DNA of 63,992 nt, filler included, from an uncultured Methanosarcinales archaeon (lineage in GTDB: Archaea > Nanobdellota > Nanobdellia > Woesearchaeales > CAYSVS01): assembly GCA_964434475.1 (NCBI GenBank). It is 5 parts of 5 records of this genome, joined end to end, with 100 filler letters (N's around TTAATTAATTAA, not from the genome) between each part and the next. Parts side by side here need not be neighbours in the genome. Positions count along the whole stretch, not along the records: positions 40,926 to 54,324 come from CAYSVS010000033.1; 4 more parts are not named here. One strand, 5' to 3'. The notes under the pieces were generated by a model. That model made no database searches and was not told the DNA's origin. It was given only the letters and a program-made list of their open reading frames with translations. Shown here piece after piece: positions 899-63,840 of this stretch. Position numbers and translations under genes: made by a program. Numbering within the stretch: the stretch's first letter is position 1; every line of letters begins with the position of its first letter.

Positions 899-1618
899 TT
901 ACTGTTTTTTAATGGATTCAATAATATTATCTTTTTTTATCGAAGATATTCCTATTTTCTTGAAATAATTGCAAATATTGGTGACATCTCTTATCAGGTA
1001 ATCTTCCGCATATATATCATTAACTGATGTTGCTTGAGAGAAATCTATAAAATACGGTTTATTATCCTTGACCAATATGTTAAAAGCACTTAAGTCAGCG
1101 TGCACCAATCCTGTTTTATATAGTTTTTTTGTATTATCTATAACATCTTCAAAGAGTTTCTTTTTGTTTTTTATTTCAGAATTAACTAACTTGGGAGCAG
1201 GTTCTTTATTTCCTATGTATTCTATTACCAGAACATTGTTTCTGTATGCGATAGGCGTAGGCACCCTAACGCTTGCTTTTCTTGCTATGTTTAAATTTCT
1301 GAATTCTCTTTGCGCCCACGAGAATATTATATTTCTTCTTGTTTTTTTAATTCCGTGATATCTTGGATCTTTTCTTATATAATCATACATCTTGTTGAAA
1401 TTGCAATTTTGTACTCTGTAGATCTTAACACACACTTTACTTCCATCTTTTCTTAAAGCACTGAAAACATTAGCTTCCTTGCCCAAAGCAATAGGACTCT
1501 GAAGTTCCGAAAACAATCCTTGTGTGCTTAATTTAAAAATAGTGCGTAATGTAAACTCGTCAAACACGTTTCCATATACCTTGATTTTATCTGTTGTGAG
1601 TTTCTTTAATTGTTTCAT
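899..1618 (-). CDS. rio1: Serine/threonine kinase RIO1
   Basis: GKEANVF, VKIYR, WAQREFRNL, LVHADLSAFNIL, IDFSQA. Confidence 0.95.
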   Translation of the reverse strand: MKQLKKLTTDKIKVYGNVFDEFTLRTIFKLSTQGLFSELQSPIALGKEANVFSALRKDGSKVCVKIYRVQNCNFNKMYDYIRKDPRYHGIKKTRRNIIFSWAQREFRNLNIARKASVRVPTPIAYRNNVLVIEYIGNKEPAPKLVNSEIKNKKKLFEDVIDNTKKLYKTGLVHADLSAFNILVKDNKPYFIDFSQATSVNDIYAEDYLIRDVTNICNYFKKIGISSIKKDNIIESIKKQ

Positions 1619-29808: not shown

Positions 29809-29899
29809 CGCCCCTGCGAAGGATTGAACTCCGGTTTCAAGGTCCGCAACCTCGCGTACTTAATGGCGCTGTGTAACGCATCCACTATACTACAGGGGC
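29809..29899 (-). tRNA. tRNA-Arg(GCG) with 19-nt D-loop intron (29861-29879)
   Basis: Acceptor GCCCCTG/CAGGGGC; anticodon arm CGAGG-TTGCGGA-CCTTG; T-arm CGGAG-TTCAATC-CTTCG; BHB-like GTGG/CCAT with ATG and TAA bulges; 72 nt after splicing. Confidence 0.9.
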
Positions 29900-46705: not shown

Positions 46706-47425
46706 TTAAGGTTTTTGTTTTAATTTATATATCTTTTCGATTATGTTTTTCATGGAGCTGTGTAAGAATTTGTTTTCTTTTGCGTTGTTATTAAGTATTT
46801 TTTTGATCATCTCTCTTTTTGAATCTTGTTTTTTTAGAAAACATTTTTGTTTAACTATAGGGTACTTCTTTTCTTTTGCAAGCTTTTGGATATCAGACTC
46901 TCTTACATTTATCAAAGGCCTGATGATTATGTTGTTTTTGTCATCTGAAATGTATCTTGGTTTCAATGCTTCTAGTTTTGATGAGTACATTATATTGAGT
47001 AATAATGTTTGCATAGAATCATCCAGATTATGGCCTAAAGCTATCTTGTTGCATTCTAACTTATTTGCTAGTTTGTATATTATGCCTCTTCTTAATCTAG
47101 AGCATAAAAAACAGCAATTCCTTGGACTTTTCTTTTTTACAATATCTGCAATAATTGTTTTTTTTATGTGATAGTTTATTTTGTTTCTATTAAAATAATC
47201 TTCTACTTTCCTGTAGTTCATCTCCTTAAATCCTTGATCAATGATTACTGCCAGGATTGAGAATTTAATTGGTGCTTTTTTTTGTAGAGTTTGGAGAACT
47301 TCTAATAACGCATAACTGTCTTTTCCTCCTGAGAATGCAATTAAGATATTATCTCCTTCTTTAATCATCCTGTGTTTGTGTATCGCTTCTCCAGCATTAT
47401 GTAAAATTCTTGATATTATTGCCAT
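46706..47425 (-). CDS. ttcA: tRNA 2-thiolation PP-loop ATPase (TtcA-like)
   Basis: SGGKDS, CFLCSRLRRG, IALGHNLDD, IIRPL. Confidence 0.85.
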   Translation of the reverse strand: MAIISRILHNAGEAIHKHRMIKEGDNILIAFSGGKDSYALLEVLQTLQKKAPIKFSILAVIIDQGFKEMNYRKVEDYFNRNKINYHIKKTIIADIVKKKSPRNCCFLCSRLRRGIIYKLANKLECNKIALGHNLDDSMQTLLLNIMYSSKLEALKPRYISDDKNNIIIRPLINVRESDIQKLAKEKKYPIVKQKCFLKKQDSKREMIKKILNNNAKENKFLHSSMKNIIEKIYKLKQKP

Positions 47426-47437
47426 TTTATTATTTTA

Positions 47438-47513
47438 AGATGTGGCCTTGGTTACTCTCCCATTCTCCTTGTTTTTCCGAAGAAAAGCTCAAAGGGGTTT
47501 AAGACCAAGGCCT
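47438..47513 (-). ncRNA. Candidate H/ACA pseudouridylation guide RNA
   Basis: 9-bp basal stem GGCCUUGGU/ACCAAGGCC followed directly by ACA; 6+6 pocket; ACA 15 nt from the upper stem; cUUCGg apical loop; TATA-like TTTAAA ~25 nt upstream. Confidence 0.6.
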
Positions 47514-47877
47514 GAGATAAATTAATCAAGAGTATTTAAAAAATTACCTCTTATGTTACACTGTTTTTGAAGTGTCTCTTTACTTTTGCAGGCGAAATTC
47601 ATTATTTTTTCTTTAAAACCTTGTTTTTGAAAAACTTAAAATATCATGAAAACTTAATTTTTTTTGTTGATATAAAATGAGTGATGAAATTAAAATTATA
47701 GATCAAAAGGTGGAGGATTTTAAAGTAAGATTTAATGATTTATCATCTTTTGAAGCTGATGATTCTCTTCTGCTTAATCCTGAATATCAATAGGGAAACG
47801 AGATAAAGATGAACATAAGATATTATACTTTAGATGCGGATAATATCTGATTGTTTTTAAAATTCTTAAGAAATATA

Positions 47878-53076: not shown

Positions 53077-53244
53077 TCAAATCAATCCCTGCTCTTTCTT
53101 TGCTTTTCTTCTGTATCTTGCATAAGGGTCTTCTGGAGAATATTTTGCGGGTTTTGGCGTCACTGTTTCAATATTGCATTTAGGACAGACAGATTTCATA
53201 GTATATTGTTTGCATATAGGACATTTAAGGATATGGCGTGCCAT
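53077..53244 (-). CDS. nop10: H/ACA RNP protein Nop10 (not in the ORF track)
   Basis: MARHILKCPICKQYTMKSVCPKC...PAKYSPEDPYARYRR; conserved position after aIF2-alpha. Confidence 0.95.
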   Translation of the reverse strand: MARHILKCPICKQYTMKSVCPKCNIETVTPKPAKYSPEDPYARYRRKAKKEQGLI

Positions 53245-53246
53245 TT

Positions 53247-54041
53247 TTATTTGAGTTTTTTACTCTCTTCTTTTATGAATTCGTATGTGCTGTTTGTCTC
53301 TTCCAGCTTATTTTCTATGTAGCTGGTAATGTTTTCCAGTATTTTTTCTGCAATATCGTAATTATCTGCTATTATCTGTAGAGCGAATATTCCTGCTCCG
53401 TTGTATTTGATGGTTGTGCCTTCTTTGTCTTTCAACGCTTCAACAAGAGCATTTTTGATTATATCCACTCCATCGGGTTCATAGGAGCTAAGTTCAAACT
53501 TGCCGTTGATTATCACTTTCATAGGTTTTATCCTTTGTTTGATTATTTCAGAAAGTTTTTTTGCAACTTTTGCTTCTATCCCTAACTTTGAAAGGTCAAG
53601 ATCCTTGTCTACGACCTCATAGAAACAAGGGAATATGTGTTCGTATTTTGGTAGTATGTGTTTGCTTATGTCATAGTATAGTTCTTTTACGCTTTTTTTC
53701 ATCTCGTTTGCGACGTATTCTATTATTTTTTCTGCTTTTTGCTCCTGTTTAATTTCTTCGTTTTTTGTTCTTCTTTGGTTTTCATTGACTCTTCTTAAAC
53801 TGAGGTCAATGTGTCCTTTTTCCTGATTTATTTTTAAGATTTTACATATTATCTTTTTTCCTTCAACAACATAGTCTCTTATGTTCCTGATCCTTCCTGG
53901 ACTTATTTCTGATATGTGAAGCATACCTGATTTGTGTTCATATTCATCAAGCTTAGCGAAAACAGAATGGTGCTGCACTTTAGTGACTGTGCATAATACT
54001 AATTCTCCTTCCTCTGGATAACCTTGTTTTTTATATAACAT
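53247..54041 (-). CDS. eif2a: Translation initiation factor aIF2 alpha subunit
   Basis: PEEGELV, LHISEISPGRIRNIRD, KGHIDLSLRRV. Confidence 0.96.
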   Translation of the reverse strand: MLYKKQGYPEEGELVLCTVTKVQHHSVFAKLDEYEHKSGMLHISEISPGRIRNIRDYVVEGKKIICKILKINQEKGHIDLSLRRVNENQRRTKNEEIKQEQKAEKIIEYVANEMKKSVKELYYDISKHILPKYEHIFPCFYEVVDKDLDLSKLGIEAKVAKKLSEIIKQRIKPMKVIINGKFELSSYEPDGVDIIKNALVEALKDKEGTTIKYNGAGIFALQIIADNYDIAEKILENITSYIENKLEETNSTYEFIKEESKKLK

Positions 54042-54042
54042 T

Positions 54043-54213
54043 TTATTCAAGTACTTCTAATATCCTTGCTTTTATTTTTGATTTTCCGCCAGTAGGTTCT
54101 GCCAATGTTTTATCACATACAAGACATTTTACCTTCTCAGCACTCTTGCCGAACATAATCTGTTCGTTTTTGCATTTTGGACATCTTATCTTAACGAATT
54201 TTGAATTTGTCAT
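54043..54213 (-). CDS. rps27e: 30S ribosomal protein S27e (not in the ORF track)
   Basis: SKFVKIRCPKCKNEQIMF...CLVC..LAEPTGGK; RBS AGGTGA. Confidence 0.96.
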   Translation of the reverse strand: MTNSKFVKIRCPKCKNEQIMFGKSAEKVKCLVCDKTLAEPTGGKSKIKARILEVLE

Positions 54214-61264: not shown

Positions 61265-61843
61265 ATGTTTGAATTCAGATATGATTTTTTTAGCGATATG
61301 GATAAAGGCGTTAAAAAAACTCTGATTAACCACTTACTTTCTTTAGATGAACATATGTTGCTGGCGGATCCTTGGGATATATTCAAACGGATGAATTGGG
61401 CAAAAGCCAAGTTAGAGTTGATGAAAGATATAATAGATAAGAATGAAATATCTGATGCTATCCTTTATAAGGCATTTAAGCCAAAGCCTATATTACTTAC
61501 TTATCCTATAAGATGTAAGAAAAAAATAGATATCTATGAAAAATATCTTGACAAACTGGAAAAAGTAAAGATGGATTATAAGTTGATGAGTAATTATTTT
61601 AAGGCAATAAAGCACGCGCCCAACAGACAGAAAAAGCTTAAATTAAAAGAAGATATAATTTGCTATATCAAAAATCACAGATTGTTTGGTGAATATTACT
61701 ATCCTCAGGCTTATTTTGGTCAAAAAGAACACTTTTATGAAATTGCAAAGATATTTAGTCATAGTAGCTTAAGTTTAAGCCTTTCTTATAAGCATATCTA
61801 TGAGGCGTATATCAAAAGTAGGACAATAGATATATATGTTTAA
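61265..61843 (+). CDS. Hypothetical protein
   Basis: 192-aa ORF with a TATA box upstream. Confidence 0.65.
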   Translation: MFEFRYDFFSDMDKGVKKTLINHLLSLDEHMLLADPWDIFKRMNWAKAKLELMKDIIDKNEISDAILYKAFKPKPILLTYPIRCKKKIDIYEKYLDKLEKVKMDYKLMSNYFKAIKHAPNRQKKLKLKEDIICYIKNHRLFGEYYYPQAYFGQKEHFYEIAKIFSHSSLSLSLSYKHIYEAYIKSRTIDIYV

Positions 61844-62637
61844 TTTAATTTTCTAACAAGAAATATAGTATGATCCTTTTCAAAAGGAGCAAGGTTTTTT
61901 TCATCTACTATTTTGAAATTATTTTCTAATTCTTTTCTTACTATATTAAATATCTCTTTTGGCTTTTTTGTTACATCAACACTTCTTGCTTTTAATGCAA
62001 GCATAGCTAATCCGTTCTTTTTCAAGAATTTTTTTACATTCTTTGTAAAAATCTCTGTTTGGTTTTTTTGGGCAATATCCATAAAAACAAAATCTACTTG
62101 AGGCAATACTAGATGAGCGTAAGTGTCTGGTTTATTGGCATCTGCCATCATAGGAGTTGTATTTTTCCTGTCAATGCATACATAAACTAGATCCCTAACA
62201 ACTCTTGGTGCAAAATCCAATGCAAAAACGCACCCCTCTTTGCCGACTATATCTGAGACATGTGAAACAGTTGTGCCAGAAGCAGCACCCAAATATAATA
62301 TTGAATCTCCTTGCTTGAATCCTAGCTGTTTAATACCATTCATCACAGCAGCACCTAATTTGGATTTTTTAGGATCCCATTCCCTTAGTTCGTAATCATC
62401 CTTTTGGATTAACTTTTCATCATAAACTTTCTTTCCAGGAGCCAGATTAACAGTAAATATCTTTTTTCTTTTTTTATTCATTACTTTTATTCCAGGATAA
62501 TTTATTTTTTGGAATTGTTTTTTATTGTTTTTTTTATCAAATTCTTTCTTGAATCCTTTTTTATAATCTTTTGTGAATTCCTTCTTACCTTTACCAAATT
62601 CTTTATTCTTTTTTTTGTCAGATCTTTTGTTTTTCAT
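61840..62637 (-). CDS. flpA: Fibrillarin (box C/D methyltransferase) with Lys-rich N-terminal extension
   Basis: REWDPKKSKLGAA, LYLGAASGTTVSHVSD, DIAQ, PFEKDH. Confidence 0.96.
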   Translation of the reverse strand: MKNKRSDKKKNKEFGKGKKEFTKDYKKGFKKEFDKKNNKKQFQKINYPGIKVMNKKRKKIFTVNLAPGKKVYDEKLIQKDDYELREWDPKKSKLGAAVMNGIKQLGFKQGDSILYLGAASGTTVSHVSDIVGKEGCVFALDFAPRVVRDLVYVCIDRKNTTPMMADANKPDTYAHLVLPQVDFVFMDIAQKNQTEIFTKNVKKFLKKNGLAMLALKARSVDVTKKPKEIFNIVRKELENNFKIVDEKNLAPFEKDHTIFLVRKLN

Positions 62638-63620
62638 CCCATCTGATCCTCTACTTGTTTTCTTAGCTTATTTCCTATGAACTCTCCCTTATAAAGATCA
62701 ACCTTGACAGCTATGCATATCTTGTCAGCTAATTTTCTTGCTGCTCTGCCTTTATCACTCATCTTAGCTTTTGATACTATAGGATGATTTATCAGCACAC
62801 CATACTTAGGACATCTTGCTCCTGTCCTTATATGTCTGAATAAAGCGCTTTCAGCTCCCAATAGTTGTATTGTAGAGCCAGGCATCATAGCAAGTCTATG
62901 TAGGTCGCCTGCATGAGCCAACAATTGCGCACCTATGTTTGCGCCTGCTATTGCCAGCAAGTTAGGGCAATATGTTTTCATCTTTGTTTCTAGGTAAGTT
63001 TCTTGTTCCTCTTTTAGCTTATGTAATGCCTTAATTTTTTGAGCAAGATTTATTATGGGCTTAACATCCTCTTCTGGTAGATCAGCACCCATACTGTCTT
63101 TTGCACTTAATTTAATCTCTTTTAATAATTCTTGTTTGTTATTTTCCAATATTAATCTTACAAAAGCTTCATGCTCTTCTACTTGTTTAGATAACTCCGG
63201 TAGATAAAGTTCATACCACTCCCTTAATCTTTTTGATAATGTGTTTGCTCCCTTATTCAGTTCTTCTATGTTTCTTATGGTCTGTATAATAAGTAAATCG
63301 TCTTTTATAGAAGCTTTTATCTTTAGTTTAGTAAGCCTTAAGTTTAATTTATATAACTCATCAAACTTTTTTTTGAAAAATTCCTGCAATGCTTTTAGCT
63401 TCTTAGGATCTTTGCTTGTCCTTATACCCTCTAACTTTGTTTCTTTGTTTCCTATATAGAATAATTTGTCATCCTTGTATTTATTGATAAACATTTTCTC
63501 ACTTTCAAGCCATGATGAATAATCACTAATGTCTTTATTCTGCACAGTTTCAACTACATCAAAGCTTTCATCAAAAACAAATGTTCCAAGTGCATTGCTT
63601 ATCAGATATTTTTCTCCCAT
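62634..63620 (-). CDS. nop5: Nop5 (Nop56/58) box C/D RNP protein
   Basis: RLREWY..YLPEL, CPNL, STIQLLGAESALFRH, PKYG. Confidence 0.95.
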   Translation of the reverse strand: MGEKYLISNALGTFVFDESFDVVETVQNKDISDYSSWLESEKMFINKYKDDKLFYIGNKETKLEGIRTSKDPKKLKALQEFFKKKFDELYKLNLRLTKLKIKASIKDDLLIIQTIRNIEELNKGANTLSKRLREWYELYLPELSKQVEEHEAFVRLILENNKQELLKEIKLSAKDSMGADLPEEDVKPIINLAQKIKALHKLKEEQETYLETKMKTYCPNLLAIAGANIGAQLLAHAGDLHRLAMMPGSTIQLLGAESALFRHIRTGARCPKYGVLINHPIVSKAKMSDKGRAARKLADKICIAVKVDLYKGEFIGNKLRKQVEDQMG

Positions 63621-63702
63621 AATAATCAAAATAGAATATATTTCTTTATAAACGTATCGTAAAAACAAGTATTTATATATCAAATAAAAAGTAATTGTGA
63701 GT

Positions 63703-63840
63703 ATGTAATCTGAAGAAGATTTCAAAAATATATTAAAATATTATAGCTTAGGAAAATTCAGGTAATCGGGAAAGATAATTAAGGATGATCATGAGTCTTT
63801 TGGTCAGGCTATACAACAAAAGGCAACAAAAGGTGTTTAA
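63703..63840 (+). pseudogene. Possible decayed N-terminus of a phosphotransferase (homoserine kinase/APH-like)
   Basis: M*SEEDFKNILKYYSLGKFR*...KATKG with two in-frame stops, after a TATA box. Confidence 0.3.

Follow-up and report, generated by a model that had tools for sequence, protein, structure and literature searches.

A predicted single-hairpin box H/ACA guide RNA from a DPANN archaeon, with a putative target in helix 69 of 23S rRNA

The locus and the architecture of the hairpin

The DNA analysed here (the window) is a stretch of 63,992 nucleotides (nt), composed of five parts of an archaeal genome assembly (GCA_964434475.1) that were joined end to end. Its minus strand carries a ttcA-like PP-loop gene at 46706-47425 (Pfam PF01171), and the unannotated gap in front of this gene is filled by a hairpin with a TATA-like box on its 5' side. 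Judging from the sequence, positions 47512-47441 of the minus strand probably encode a single-hairpin archaeal box H/ACA guide small RNA (sRNA) of ~73 nt, which is predicted to direct pseudouridylation of 23S ribosomal RNA (rRNA) at the equivalent of Escherichia coli U1923. The elements of the locus, from 5' to 3' along the RNA, are as follows. The term GA stem is used for the stack that runs from the closing layer of the pocket through the tandem sheared pairs of the K-turn.

47533-47540, minus strand: TATA-like promoter box, TTTAAATA, approximately 20-21 nt 5' of the first G of the stem
47504-47512, minus strand: 5' arm of the lower stem, GGCCUUGGU, which pairs with 47452-47444
47499-47503, minus strand: 5' guide strand of the pseudouridylation pocket, CUUAA, with UUAAG of 23S rRNA as its predicted partner
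47489-47498, minus strand: 5' strand of the GA stem, A-CCCC-UUU-GA (the A.A closing layer, six to seven stem layers, then the G and the A that form the sheared pairs); this is the non-bulged strand of the K-turn
47471-47488, minus strand: C-stem of the K-turn with the apical loop, GCUUUUC-UUCG-GAAAAAC, from sequence reading and folding
47468-47470, minus strand: 3-nt bulge of the K-turn, AAG, from sequence reading
47458-47467, minus strand: 3' strand of the GA stem, GA-GAAU-GGG-A, the bulged strand of the K-turn
47453-47457, minus strand: 3' guide strand of the pocket, GAGUA, of which GAGU is predicted to pair with ACUC of 23S rRNA
47444-47452, minus strand: 3' arm of the lower stem, ACCAAGGCC, from sequence reading
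47441-47443, minus strand: ACA box; the closing layer of the upper stem is 14 nt away
47426-47440, minus strand: 15-nt spacer, UCUUAAAAUAAUAAA, leading from the ACA to the start codon of ttcA

The minus-strand sequence of 47513-47438 reads A-GGCCUUGGU-CUUAAA-CCCCUUUGAGC-UUUUC-UUCG-GAAAA-ACAAGGAGAAU-GGG-AGAGUA-ACCAAGGCC-ACA-UCU, and that of 47513-47436 is AGGCCUUGGUCUUAAACCCCUUUGAGCUUUUCUUCGGAAAAACAAGGAGAAUGGGAGAGUAACCAAGGCCACAUCUUA. The A at 47513 lies outside the stem, which begins at 47512. An initial annotation of the locus had parsed it into a 9-bp basal stem, a bipartite pocket, a C-UUCG-G loop and an ACA right behind the stem, and this parsing matches the sequence, as does the TATA box that it had claimed (TTTAAATA at 47540-47533). 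With model positions p defined by coordinate 47514 - p, the upper part of the structure is built from the following layers.

Pocket-closing layer: A16.A56
Upper stem layers: C17-G55, C18-G54, C19-G53, C20.U52, U21-A51, U22-A50 and U23.G49
Tandem sheared pairs: G24.A48 and A25.G47
Bulge of 3 nt in the 3' strand: A44, A45 and G46
Canonical C-stem: G26-C43 through C32-G37
Apical loop: UUCG

The lower stem consists of nine Watson-Crick pairs (47512-47504 with 47452-47444), where 7-9 bp are expected of an archaeal box H/ACA guide. Above it, the internal loop presents CUUAA(A) on its 5' side and (A)GAGUA on its 3' side, which fits the rule of a 3' single strand of 5-6 nt (PMC4652768; this and the other papers named below are cited from extracts of their text). 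The initial annotation saw no obvious canonical K-turn. This point has to be corrected, because a K-turn is present, formed by the G24.A48 and A25.G47 pairs, the A44-A45-G46 bulge and a UUCG-capped C-stem that starts at G26-C43. Its layout is standard, and its non-canonical stem faces the pocket. There are 10 layers between the closing layer (with A16.A56 counted) and the second sheared G.A pair, inclusive, and the RNA adopts in the model a 10/5/9 fold (10 GA-stem layers, a 5-nt 3' strand and a 9-bp lower stem) with the ACA at 14 nt. The productive Pyrococcus H/ACA folds described in PMC4652768 have exactly 10 stacked GA-stem layers, a 3' single strand of 5 or 6 nt and an ANA at 14-15 nt, and belong to types 10/5/9 and 10/6/9; the ANA-distance rule given in the consulted part of PMC2377435 is likewise 14-15 nt.

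A box C/D sRNA was also considered, as the K-turn resembles a D'/C' pair. This candidate was rejected: the terminal C and D boxes are absent, and the ends of the RNA are the paired arms GGCCUUGGU and ACCAAGGCC.

Conservation of the hairpin in related genomes

Covariance-model searches of relatives, the approach that the initial annotation had proposed, recovered orthologs with covarying stems. Related genomes were reached through TtcA loci and then used as the centres of genome searches, and the samples comprise 151 genomes of the order of genome G001 (Woesearchaeales-like, DPANN) and 151 genomes at the class level. Among the 151 order genomes, a single-sequence model (R1) gave three strong full-length matches (E 7e-11 to 2e-7) and matches in 14 genomes at E<=1, while a 4-sequence model (R2) gave matches in 15 at E<=0.1. 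A 14-sequence model (R3) found full-length matches in 13 of the same 151 (E 2e-18 to 5e-12), with none further at E<=0.01. Applied to the class-level sample, R3 added one ortholog (L172 of genome G159, in a K-loop form) and two paralogs with other pockets (L173 and L174). No second copy or paralog was found in the window by R3 with filters off, and family-level searches around G037 and G103 comprised one genome each and added nothing. The relatives are not close: the cysteinyl-tRNA synthetase (CysRS) identity to the window is 58-59% for G103 and G001, and 41-50% for G037, G131 and G159.

In the 14-sequence alignment, 16 of the 21 pairs have changed on both sides, and standard pairs occupy 88.3% of the cells. 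Sliding the 3' partners by 1-3 columns lowers this share to 38-48%. None of 500 shuffles matched the observed percentage paired, the double-change pairs, the double-change cells or the covariation score, and six of the 500 matched the further pair types. This alignment was fitted to the structure of the model and is therefore biased towards that structure; we nevertheless regard the helices as secure, because of the size of the covariation effect and because swaps in the lower stem are directly visible among the orthologs (GGU/ACC, GCU/AGC, GCC/GGC, GUU/AAC and GUG/CAC). Five of the nine lower-stem pairs show changes on both sides, with 95.9% of the cells paired in the 14 sequences. For the C-stem, four of five pairs covary, and the closing pair is G-C in 13 of the 14 sequences and A-U in one; in L172, a short K-loop replaces the C-stem and apical loop. 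The GA/GA core and the 3-nt bulge are kept in 14 of the 15 orthologs, with bulges such as UAU, UGU and AAU that are followed by GA. The exception is L118, which has AA for GA.

The L118 hairpin (1501-1576, minus strand, genome G033) carries its AA on the non-bulged strand of the K-turn, and a CCA, like the 3' end of a tRNA, stands at the place of the ACA. A HAD-hydrolase gene begins 2 nt downstream of this hairpin.

The unpaired letters of the pocket stay constant where the stems change. The CUUAA strand occurs in 15 of 15 orthologs. The 3' strand begins with GAG in all 15, followed by a fourth nucleotide that is U in 10 and A in five, and a fifth that is A in 13, U in one and C in one. Many orthologs also have an extra C 5' of CUUAA, which would lengthen this side of the pairing to 6 bp by including the following rRNA G. 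Such invariance of unpaired letters between covarying stems is what characterises a guide RNA. The nucleotides at the top of the pocket (A16 and A56 in the window) behave differently, as they vary and can pair in most orthologs (G.U, G-C or A-U), and so the working pocket is 5+5 nt, which is what the register of the initial annotation had assumed.

An A/T-rich, TATA-like box is located at a similar distance upstream of the hairpin in 14 of 14 orthologs and in the paralog L120, with coordinates measured in the window only.

Three paralogous hairpins share the scaffold of the family (a GCCC..GGGC lower stem and the K-turn) and differ in their pocket sequences: L120 (912-987, plus strand, in G094), which came from the order-level sample, L173 (1501-1575, plus strand, in G263) and L174 (1501-1576, plus strand, in G159). 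The box of these three reads ACA, ACA and AUA, respectively. Going by their sequences, they are likely to be further H/ACA guides for other sites.

The predicted target and alternative interpretations

The conserved pocket letters predict a target of the form 5'-ACUC-[U N]-UUAAG-3'. The register put forward in the initial annotation, with GAGU paired to ACUC, CUUAA paired to UUAAG and U-C left unpaired, is supported by the conserved nucleotides of the 15 orthologs. Registers that use the two pocket-top nucleotides were tried and rejected, as they would place C, not U, at the target and as those nucleotides vary among orthologs.

An Rfam scan detected no 23S rRNA in the window, and the target is thus read from relatives. 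Among these, no 23S rRNA was found in G001, G003, G037 or G015, and a partial one was found in G103. A search pattern for helix 69 that fixes only the flanks gave 49 matches in 48 of the 151 order genomes (47 without G135, which is unpublished), the others being without a recovered 23S. All 49 matches read ACTCTCTTAAGG, with AAC in 48 and GAC in one, and the target sequence ACUCUCUUAAGG is present in 49 of 49. The 23S of G002 and G103 reads GUAACUAUAACUCUCUUAAGGUAGCG.

To place the site in E. coli numbering, the first G of the pattern was taken as G1910. The pattern begins 1909 nt into the 2903-nt annotated 23S feature, which is assumed to begin one nt late, the standard length being 2904 nt. 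Numbered in this way, the uridines are 1911, 1915 and 1917, and the target is predicted to be U1923, which lies six nt beyond U1917 in the 3' direction. Table 1 of PMC11077068 equates Sulfolobus islandicus 23S-U2060 with pseudouridine 2260 in yeast and 1917 in E. coli, and U2066 with pseudouridine 2266 in yeast. Since U2060 and U2066 are likewise six nt apart, in the same order, the assignment of the target to yeast position 2266, already made in the initial annotation, holds. In the extract of the same paper, the pseudouridines at both S. islandicus sites are lost upon deletion of sR148, an atypical H/ACA RNA that associates with Cbf5. At the position of the predicted site, an RNA-guided pseudouridine is already proven for another archaeon, and the site is located in helix 69, a region of subunit bridging and tRNA contact.

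To assess the specificity of the pocket, the 16S and 23S rRNAs of four genomes that carry the guide were scanned for sites that pair through Watson-Crick pairs alone over 3 bp or more on each side, with no more than one guide nt left unpaired at the pocket top. The helix 69 site is the sole target of at least 9 bp in all four rRNA sets, both for the guide of the window and for the guide of each genome itself. When the ten pocket letters were shuffled, a target of at least 9 bp was reached in 14 of 2000 trials for G149 and 16 of 2000 for G095.

Of the expected protein partners, L7Ae and Nop10 were each found in five of five guide-bearing relatives (G037, G131, G103, G015 and G021), and Cbf5 (TruB_N) in four of five. 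The two Cbf5 proteins that were examined, one from a host with the ACA and one from a host without it, have DKCLD, TruB_N and PUA domains. The window itself contains nop10, as had been stated in the initial annotation:

53077-53244, minus strand: nop10 (Pfam PF04135, E 6.8e-20), downstream of S27e and eIF2-alpha

By analogy with the box H/ACA family, we infer the following sequence of events. The RNA would be transcribed from its own TATA box, and L7Ae would bind the K-turn of the upper stem in a ribonucleoprotein (RNP). The pocket strands would then pair with the 3' side of helix 69 in the organism's own 23S rRNA, if the site is the same there as in its relatives, with GAGU on A1919-C1922 and CUUAA on U1925-G1929 (E. 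coli numbers). U1923 and C1924 would be left unpaired in the active site of Cbf5, where U1923 would be isomerised to pseudouridine.

Several observations weigh against this interpretation. Some concern the RNA itself: the pocket-closing layer of the window RNA is an A.A mismatch, a C.U mismatch lies within the upper stem, and an Rfam scan of the region gave no family at the gathering score. The best match at a loose threshold was snoR77, a plant H/ACA family, with 21 bits against a cut-off of 47 (E 0.4), which is no evidence by itself. The ACA is missing from its canonical place in 12 of 15 orthologs, which have AAU, AAU, UUU, UUU, AAC, UUC, GCA, GUU, GCC, AAC, CCA and GUA there. As for the proteins, Gar1 (PF04410) was detected in none of the five guide-bearing relatives with a model that also missed one of four control archaea. 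For this reason, and because the genomes of the relatives are incomplete, an absence of Gar1 is not established; the non-detection may reflect a true loss in reduced genomes, or a problem of sensitivity or completeness.

The remaining points concern the target. It is inferred from relatives with just 41-59% CysRS identity to the window. Its duplex with the guide has few pairs, 4+5 bp for the window RNA and 3+6 bp for the five GAGAA orthologs, and the extract of PMC2377435 stresses the importance of the 3' guide duplex. Other A/U-rich rRNA sites reach 9-10 bp when G.U pairs are allowed. The RNA was also found in just 13 of the 151 order genomes, though every matched 23S carries the target; in the other lineages, either the U is unmodified, or an unrelated guide or enzyme serves it, or the copies are too diverged or were lost to incomplete assemblies.

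Most of these target-related points would fit an H/ACA-type K-turn RNP RNA whose substrate is not U1923 of helix 69 but some other RNA, be it a tRNA, an mRNA or a further sRNA, or one that is an orphan or serves as a chaperone. The total of 9 bp in the window is small, the 3' guide side is reduced to 3 bp in five orthologs, several further rRNA sites become available with G.U pairs, the guide is much rarer than its site, and the target scan was confined to 16S and 23S rRNA. We consider such a role unlikely, as the G.U-dependent alternatives differ from genome to genome and the only Watson-Crick target of at least 9 bp is identical in the four rRNA sets. The letters that pair with helix 69 are exactly the invariant letters of the pocket, and the additional 5' C of many orthologs lengthens the pairing to the next G of the rRNA. 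Moreover, pseudouridine occurs at this site in yeast and, in a Cbf5-dependent manner, in S. islandicus (Table 1 of PMC11077068).

A second alternative is that the hairpin works in cis at the 5' end of the ttcA mRNA, as a leader such as a K-turn translation switch operated by L7Ae, and not as a trans-acting guide. The organization of the locus lends some weight to this idea. The ttcA gene starts 15 nt past the ACA, and the spacer at 47426-47440 contains neither a T-run terminator nor a separate TATA box, from which it follows that ttcA is probably co-transcribed behind the sRNA. In this genome, the ttcA mRNA probably begins as read-through of the guide gene, and the sRNA would be cut out or would share the transcript. 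Among sequencing runs, the locus was found in one DNA run, from which the window may derive, and in no RNA run. The hairpin does not, however, cover the ribosome-binding region and start codon of ttcA, and the orthologs make a leader function quite improbable. In none of the 14 orthologs is the hairpin followed by a PP-loop gene, so that the possibility raised by the initial annotation, of an RNA that exists only as the 5' untranslated region of ttcA, is contradicted. At eight orthologs the next gene on the same strand encodes pyruvate kinase (two cases), Cyt-b5, a HAD hydrolase, UPF0113 or a protein of no family (three cases), and a PP-loop gene in zero of eight; five orthologs are convergent with the next gene, and one is at a contig end. 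The neighbours of L091, for instance, are LeuRS and an L18e-L13-S9 cluster, and those of L092 are endonuclease III and an EamA-like gene. Since the neighbours differ and none is ttcA, the hairpin is an independent gene and not a leader element of ttcA, and T-rich, terminator-like tails follow many of the orthologs.

The TtcA protein alone, used as a query of genome contigs, found no relative. A TtcA alignment found mostly bacterial TtcA loci and three archaeal ones. No such hairpin is present upstream of ttcA in L047, the closest TtcA locus found (55% identity), which likewise speaks against a leader, and blastn of the hairpin against the genomes of the three archaeal TtcA loci gave only chance-level matches (best E 0.089).

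Finally, it is exceedingly improbable, and can be regarded as already refuted, that the hairpin arose by chance or that the structure belongs to the opposite strand. The folding energy of -26.1 kcal/mol is indeed only mildly better than that of shuffled sequences (z = -2.2, with five of 200 shuffles folding equally well), and the plus strand gives a weak model match (19.8 bits, explained by the largely self-complementary hairpin). Orthologs, however, reach E 2e-18 with covariation, and the G.U/U.G pairs of ortholog stems, the GA/GA core of the K-turn and the upstream TATA boxes fit the minus strand only. On comparative sequence evidence, then, the hairpin is a real conserved small RNA gene rather than a chance structure, and the guide for helix 69 is the interpretation that we retain.

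Other genes of the window are those of an AT-rich archaeon (31-34% G+C). RIO kinase, eIF2-alpha, S27e, fibrillarin and Nop5 are encoded, with S27e, eIF2-alpha and Nop10 forming a gene cluster at 53077-54213 (minus strand), and fibrillarin and Nop5 a gene pair at 61840-63725 (minus strand), in which the fibrillarin has approximately 45 extra N-terminal residues ahead of its Pfam domain. The best relatives of the TtcA protein, at no more than 60% identity, include proteins labelled Woesearchaeota or Nanoarchaeota. At 29809-29899 (minus strand) a 91-nt segment matches the Rfam tRNA model with 47.1 bits, and ARAGORN finds no tRNA in the whole window; the most probable explanation is an archaeal tRNA gene that contains an intron or is atypical in some other way.

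The ACA box and comparison with known guide RNAs

An ACA follows the lower stem directly in only three of the 15 orthologs, namely the window RNA, L090 (G037) and L119 (G131). The initial annotation had set the conservation of both pocket and ACA in relatives as a test, and the two have parted company: the pocket is kept throughout, and the ACA is not. The lower stem, GCCCUG/CAGGGC, is nearly invariant in the ortholog family, unlike the ACA. Precedents for an altered or missing box exist, as CCA stands in place of ANA in one Pyrobaculum species (PMC4652768), and functional "H/ACA-like" RNAs without the ACA and without the stem are described for Pyrobaculum and Sulfolobus (PMC11077068). Because of these cases, loss of the ACA is compatible with guide function. 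A guide family that keeps the whole stem yet drops the ACA was not met in the extracts of the literature that were consulted, in which no search was aimed at one.

We propose tentatively, as an idea that we would not yet favor, that the window RNA belongs, as the canonical form with an ACA, to a guide family of DPANN archaea whose members have mostly lost the ACA and kept a full and strongly conserved lower stem (GCCCUG...CAGGGC), that such ACA-less guides are a natural intermediate between the classic H/ACA RNA and the "H/ACA-like" RNA, and that they are anchored to Cbf5 without the contact between the PUA domain and the ACA. If the ACA-less RNAs work as guides, Cbf5 in these reduced archaea (with no Gar1 detected in five genomes) would have to hold its guide without that contact. 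A single ortholog family that has kept the ACA in some species and lost it in most would be a natural test of what the box does.

The window RNA closely resembles the classic single-hairpin archaeal H/ACA sRNAs, such as the Pab and Pf RNAs of Pyrococcus and sR115 and sR435 of S. islandicus (as presented in the extracts of PMC2377435, PMC4652768 and PMC11077068). It has in common with these the 9-bp lower stem, the bipartite pocket, the 5-nt 3' strand, the ACA at 14 nt and its own promoter. It differs from them in that it has no similarity to an Rfam family at the gathering score, has an A.A closing layer and forms very short duplexes (4+5 bp), and in that most of its orthologs from the same order lack an ANA box yet have a full lower stem.

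With sR148 of S. islandicus, which guides 23S 2060 and 2066 (PMC11077068), it shares the predicted position (2066, equal to yeast 2266), the K-turn expected of a Cbf5 guide and a very short duplex, given as 6 bp for sR148 at U2066. Unlike sR148, the window RNA combines a full lower stem with two guide strands, and for the equivalent of 1917 no pairing is predicted. Yeast and Sulfolobus already have a pseudouridine at this position, which three lineages thus appear to serve with unrelated guide RNAs. The yeast guide for 25S pseudouridine 2266, snR84, acts at the same rRNA position and in the same target context, ACUCUCUUAAG, as the window RNA. Being a eukaryotic H/ACA snoRNA, it has, unlike the latter, two hairpins and an H box but no K-turn, and Nhp2 replaces L7Ae.

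Two further archaeal RNAs are comparable in part. The only H/ACA RNA of a DPANN organism found in the consulted literature is the 159-nt sRNA of Nanoarchaeum equitans (as described in the extract of PMC3491384), which resembles the window RNA in its DPANN host, its GA-GA K-turn bulges, its ACA motifs and its own box A promoter, and which has a T-stretch. It consists, unlike the window RNA, of two hairpins joined by an ACA, and its targets are predicted only. Stem-loop 2 of Haloferax volcanii sR-h45 is likewise an archaeal H/ACA hairpin acting on helix 69 (PMC7075261). It is part of a double stem-loop RNA, and guides 1940 and 1942 in the loop of helix 69 (E. coli 1915 and 1917), not U1923. The findings on this RNA make guide function plausible for those orthologs that lack an ACA.

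Set beside these systems, the window RNA itself is of the known box H/ACA type, and the ACA-less orthologs are its more unusual aspect. To the RNAs listed above it adds a defined DPANN guide family, with a covariance model, members in 13 of 151 genomes of the order and a specific, testable target.

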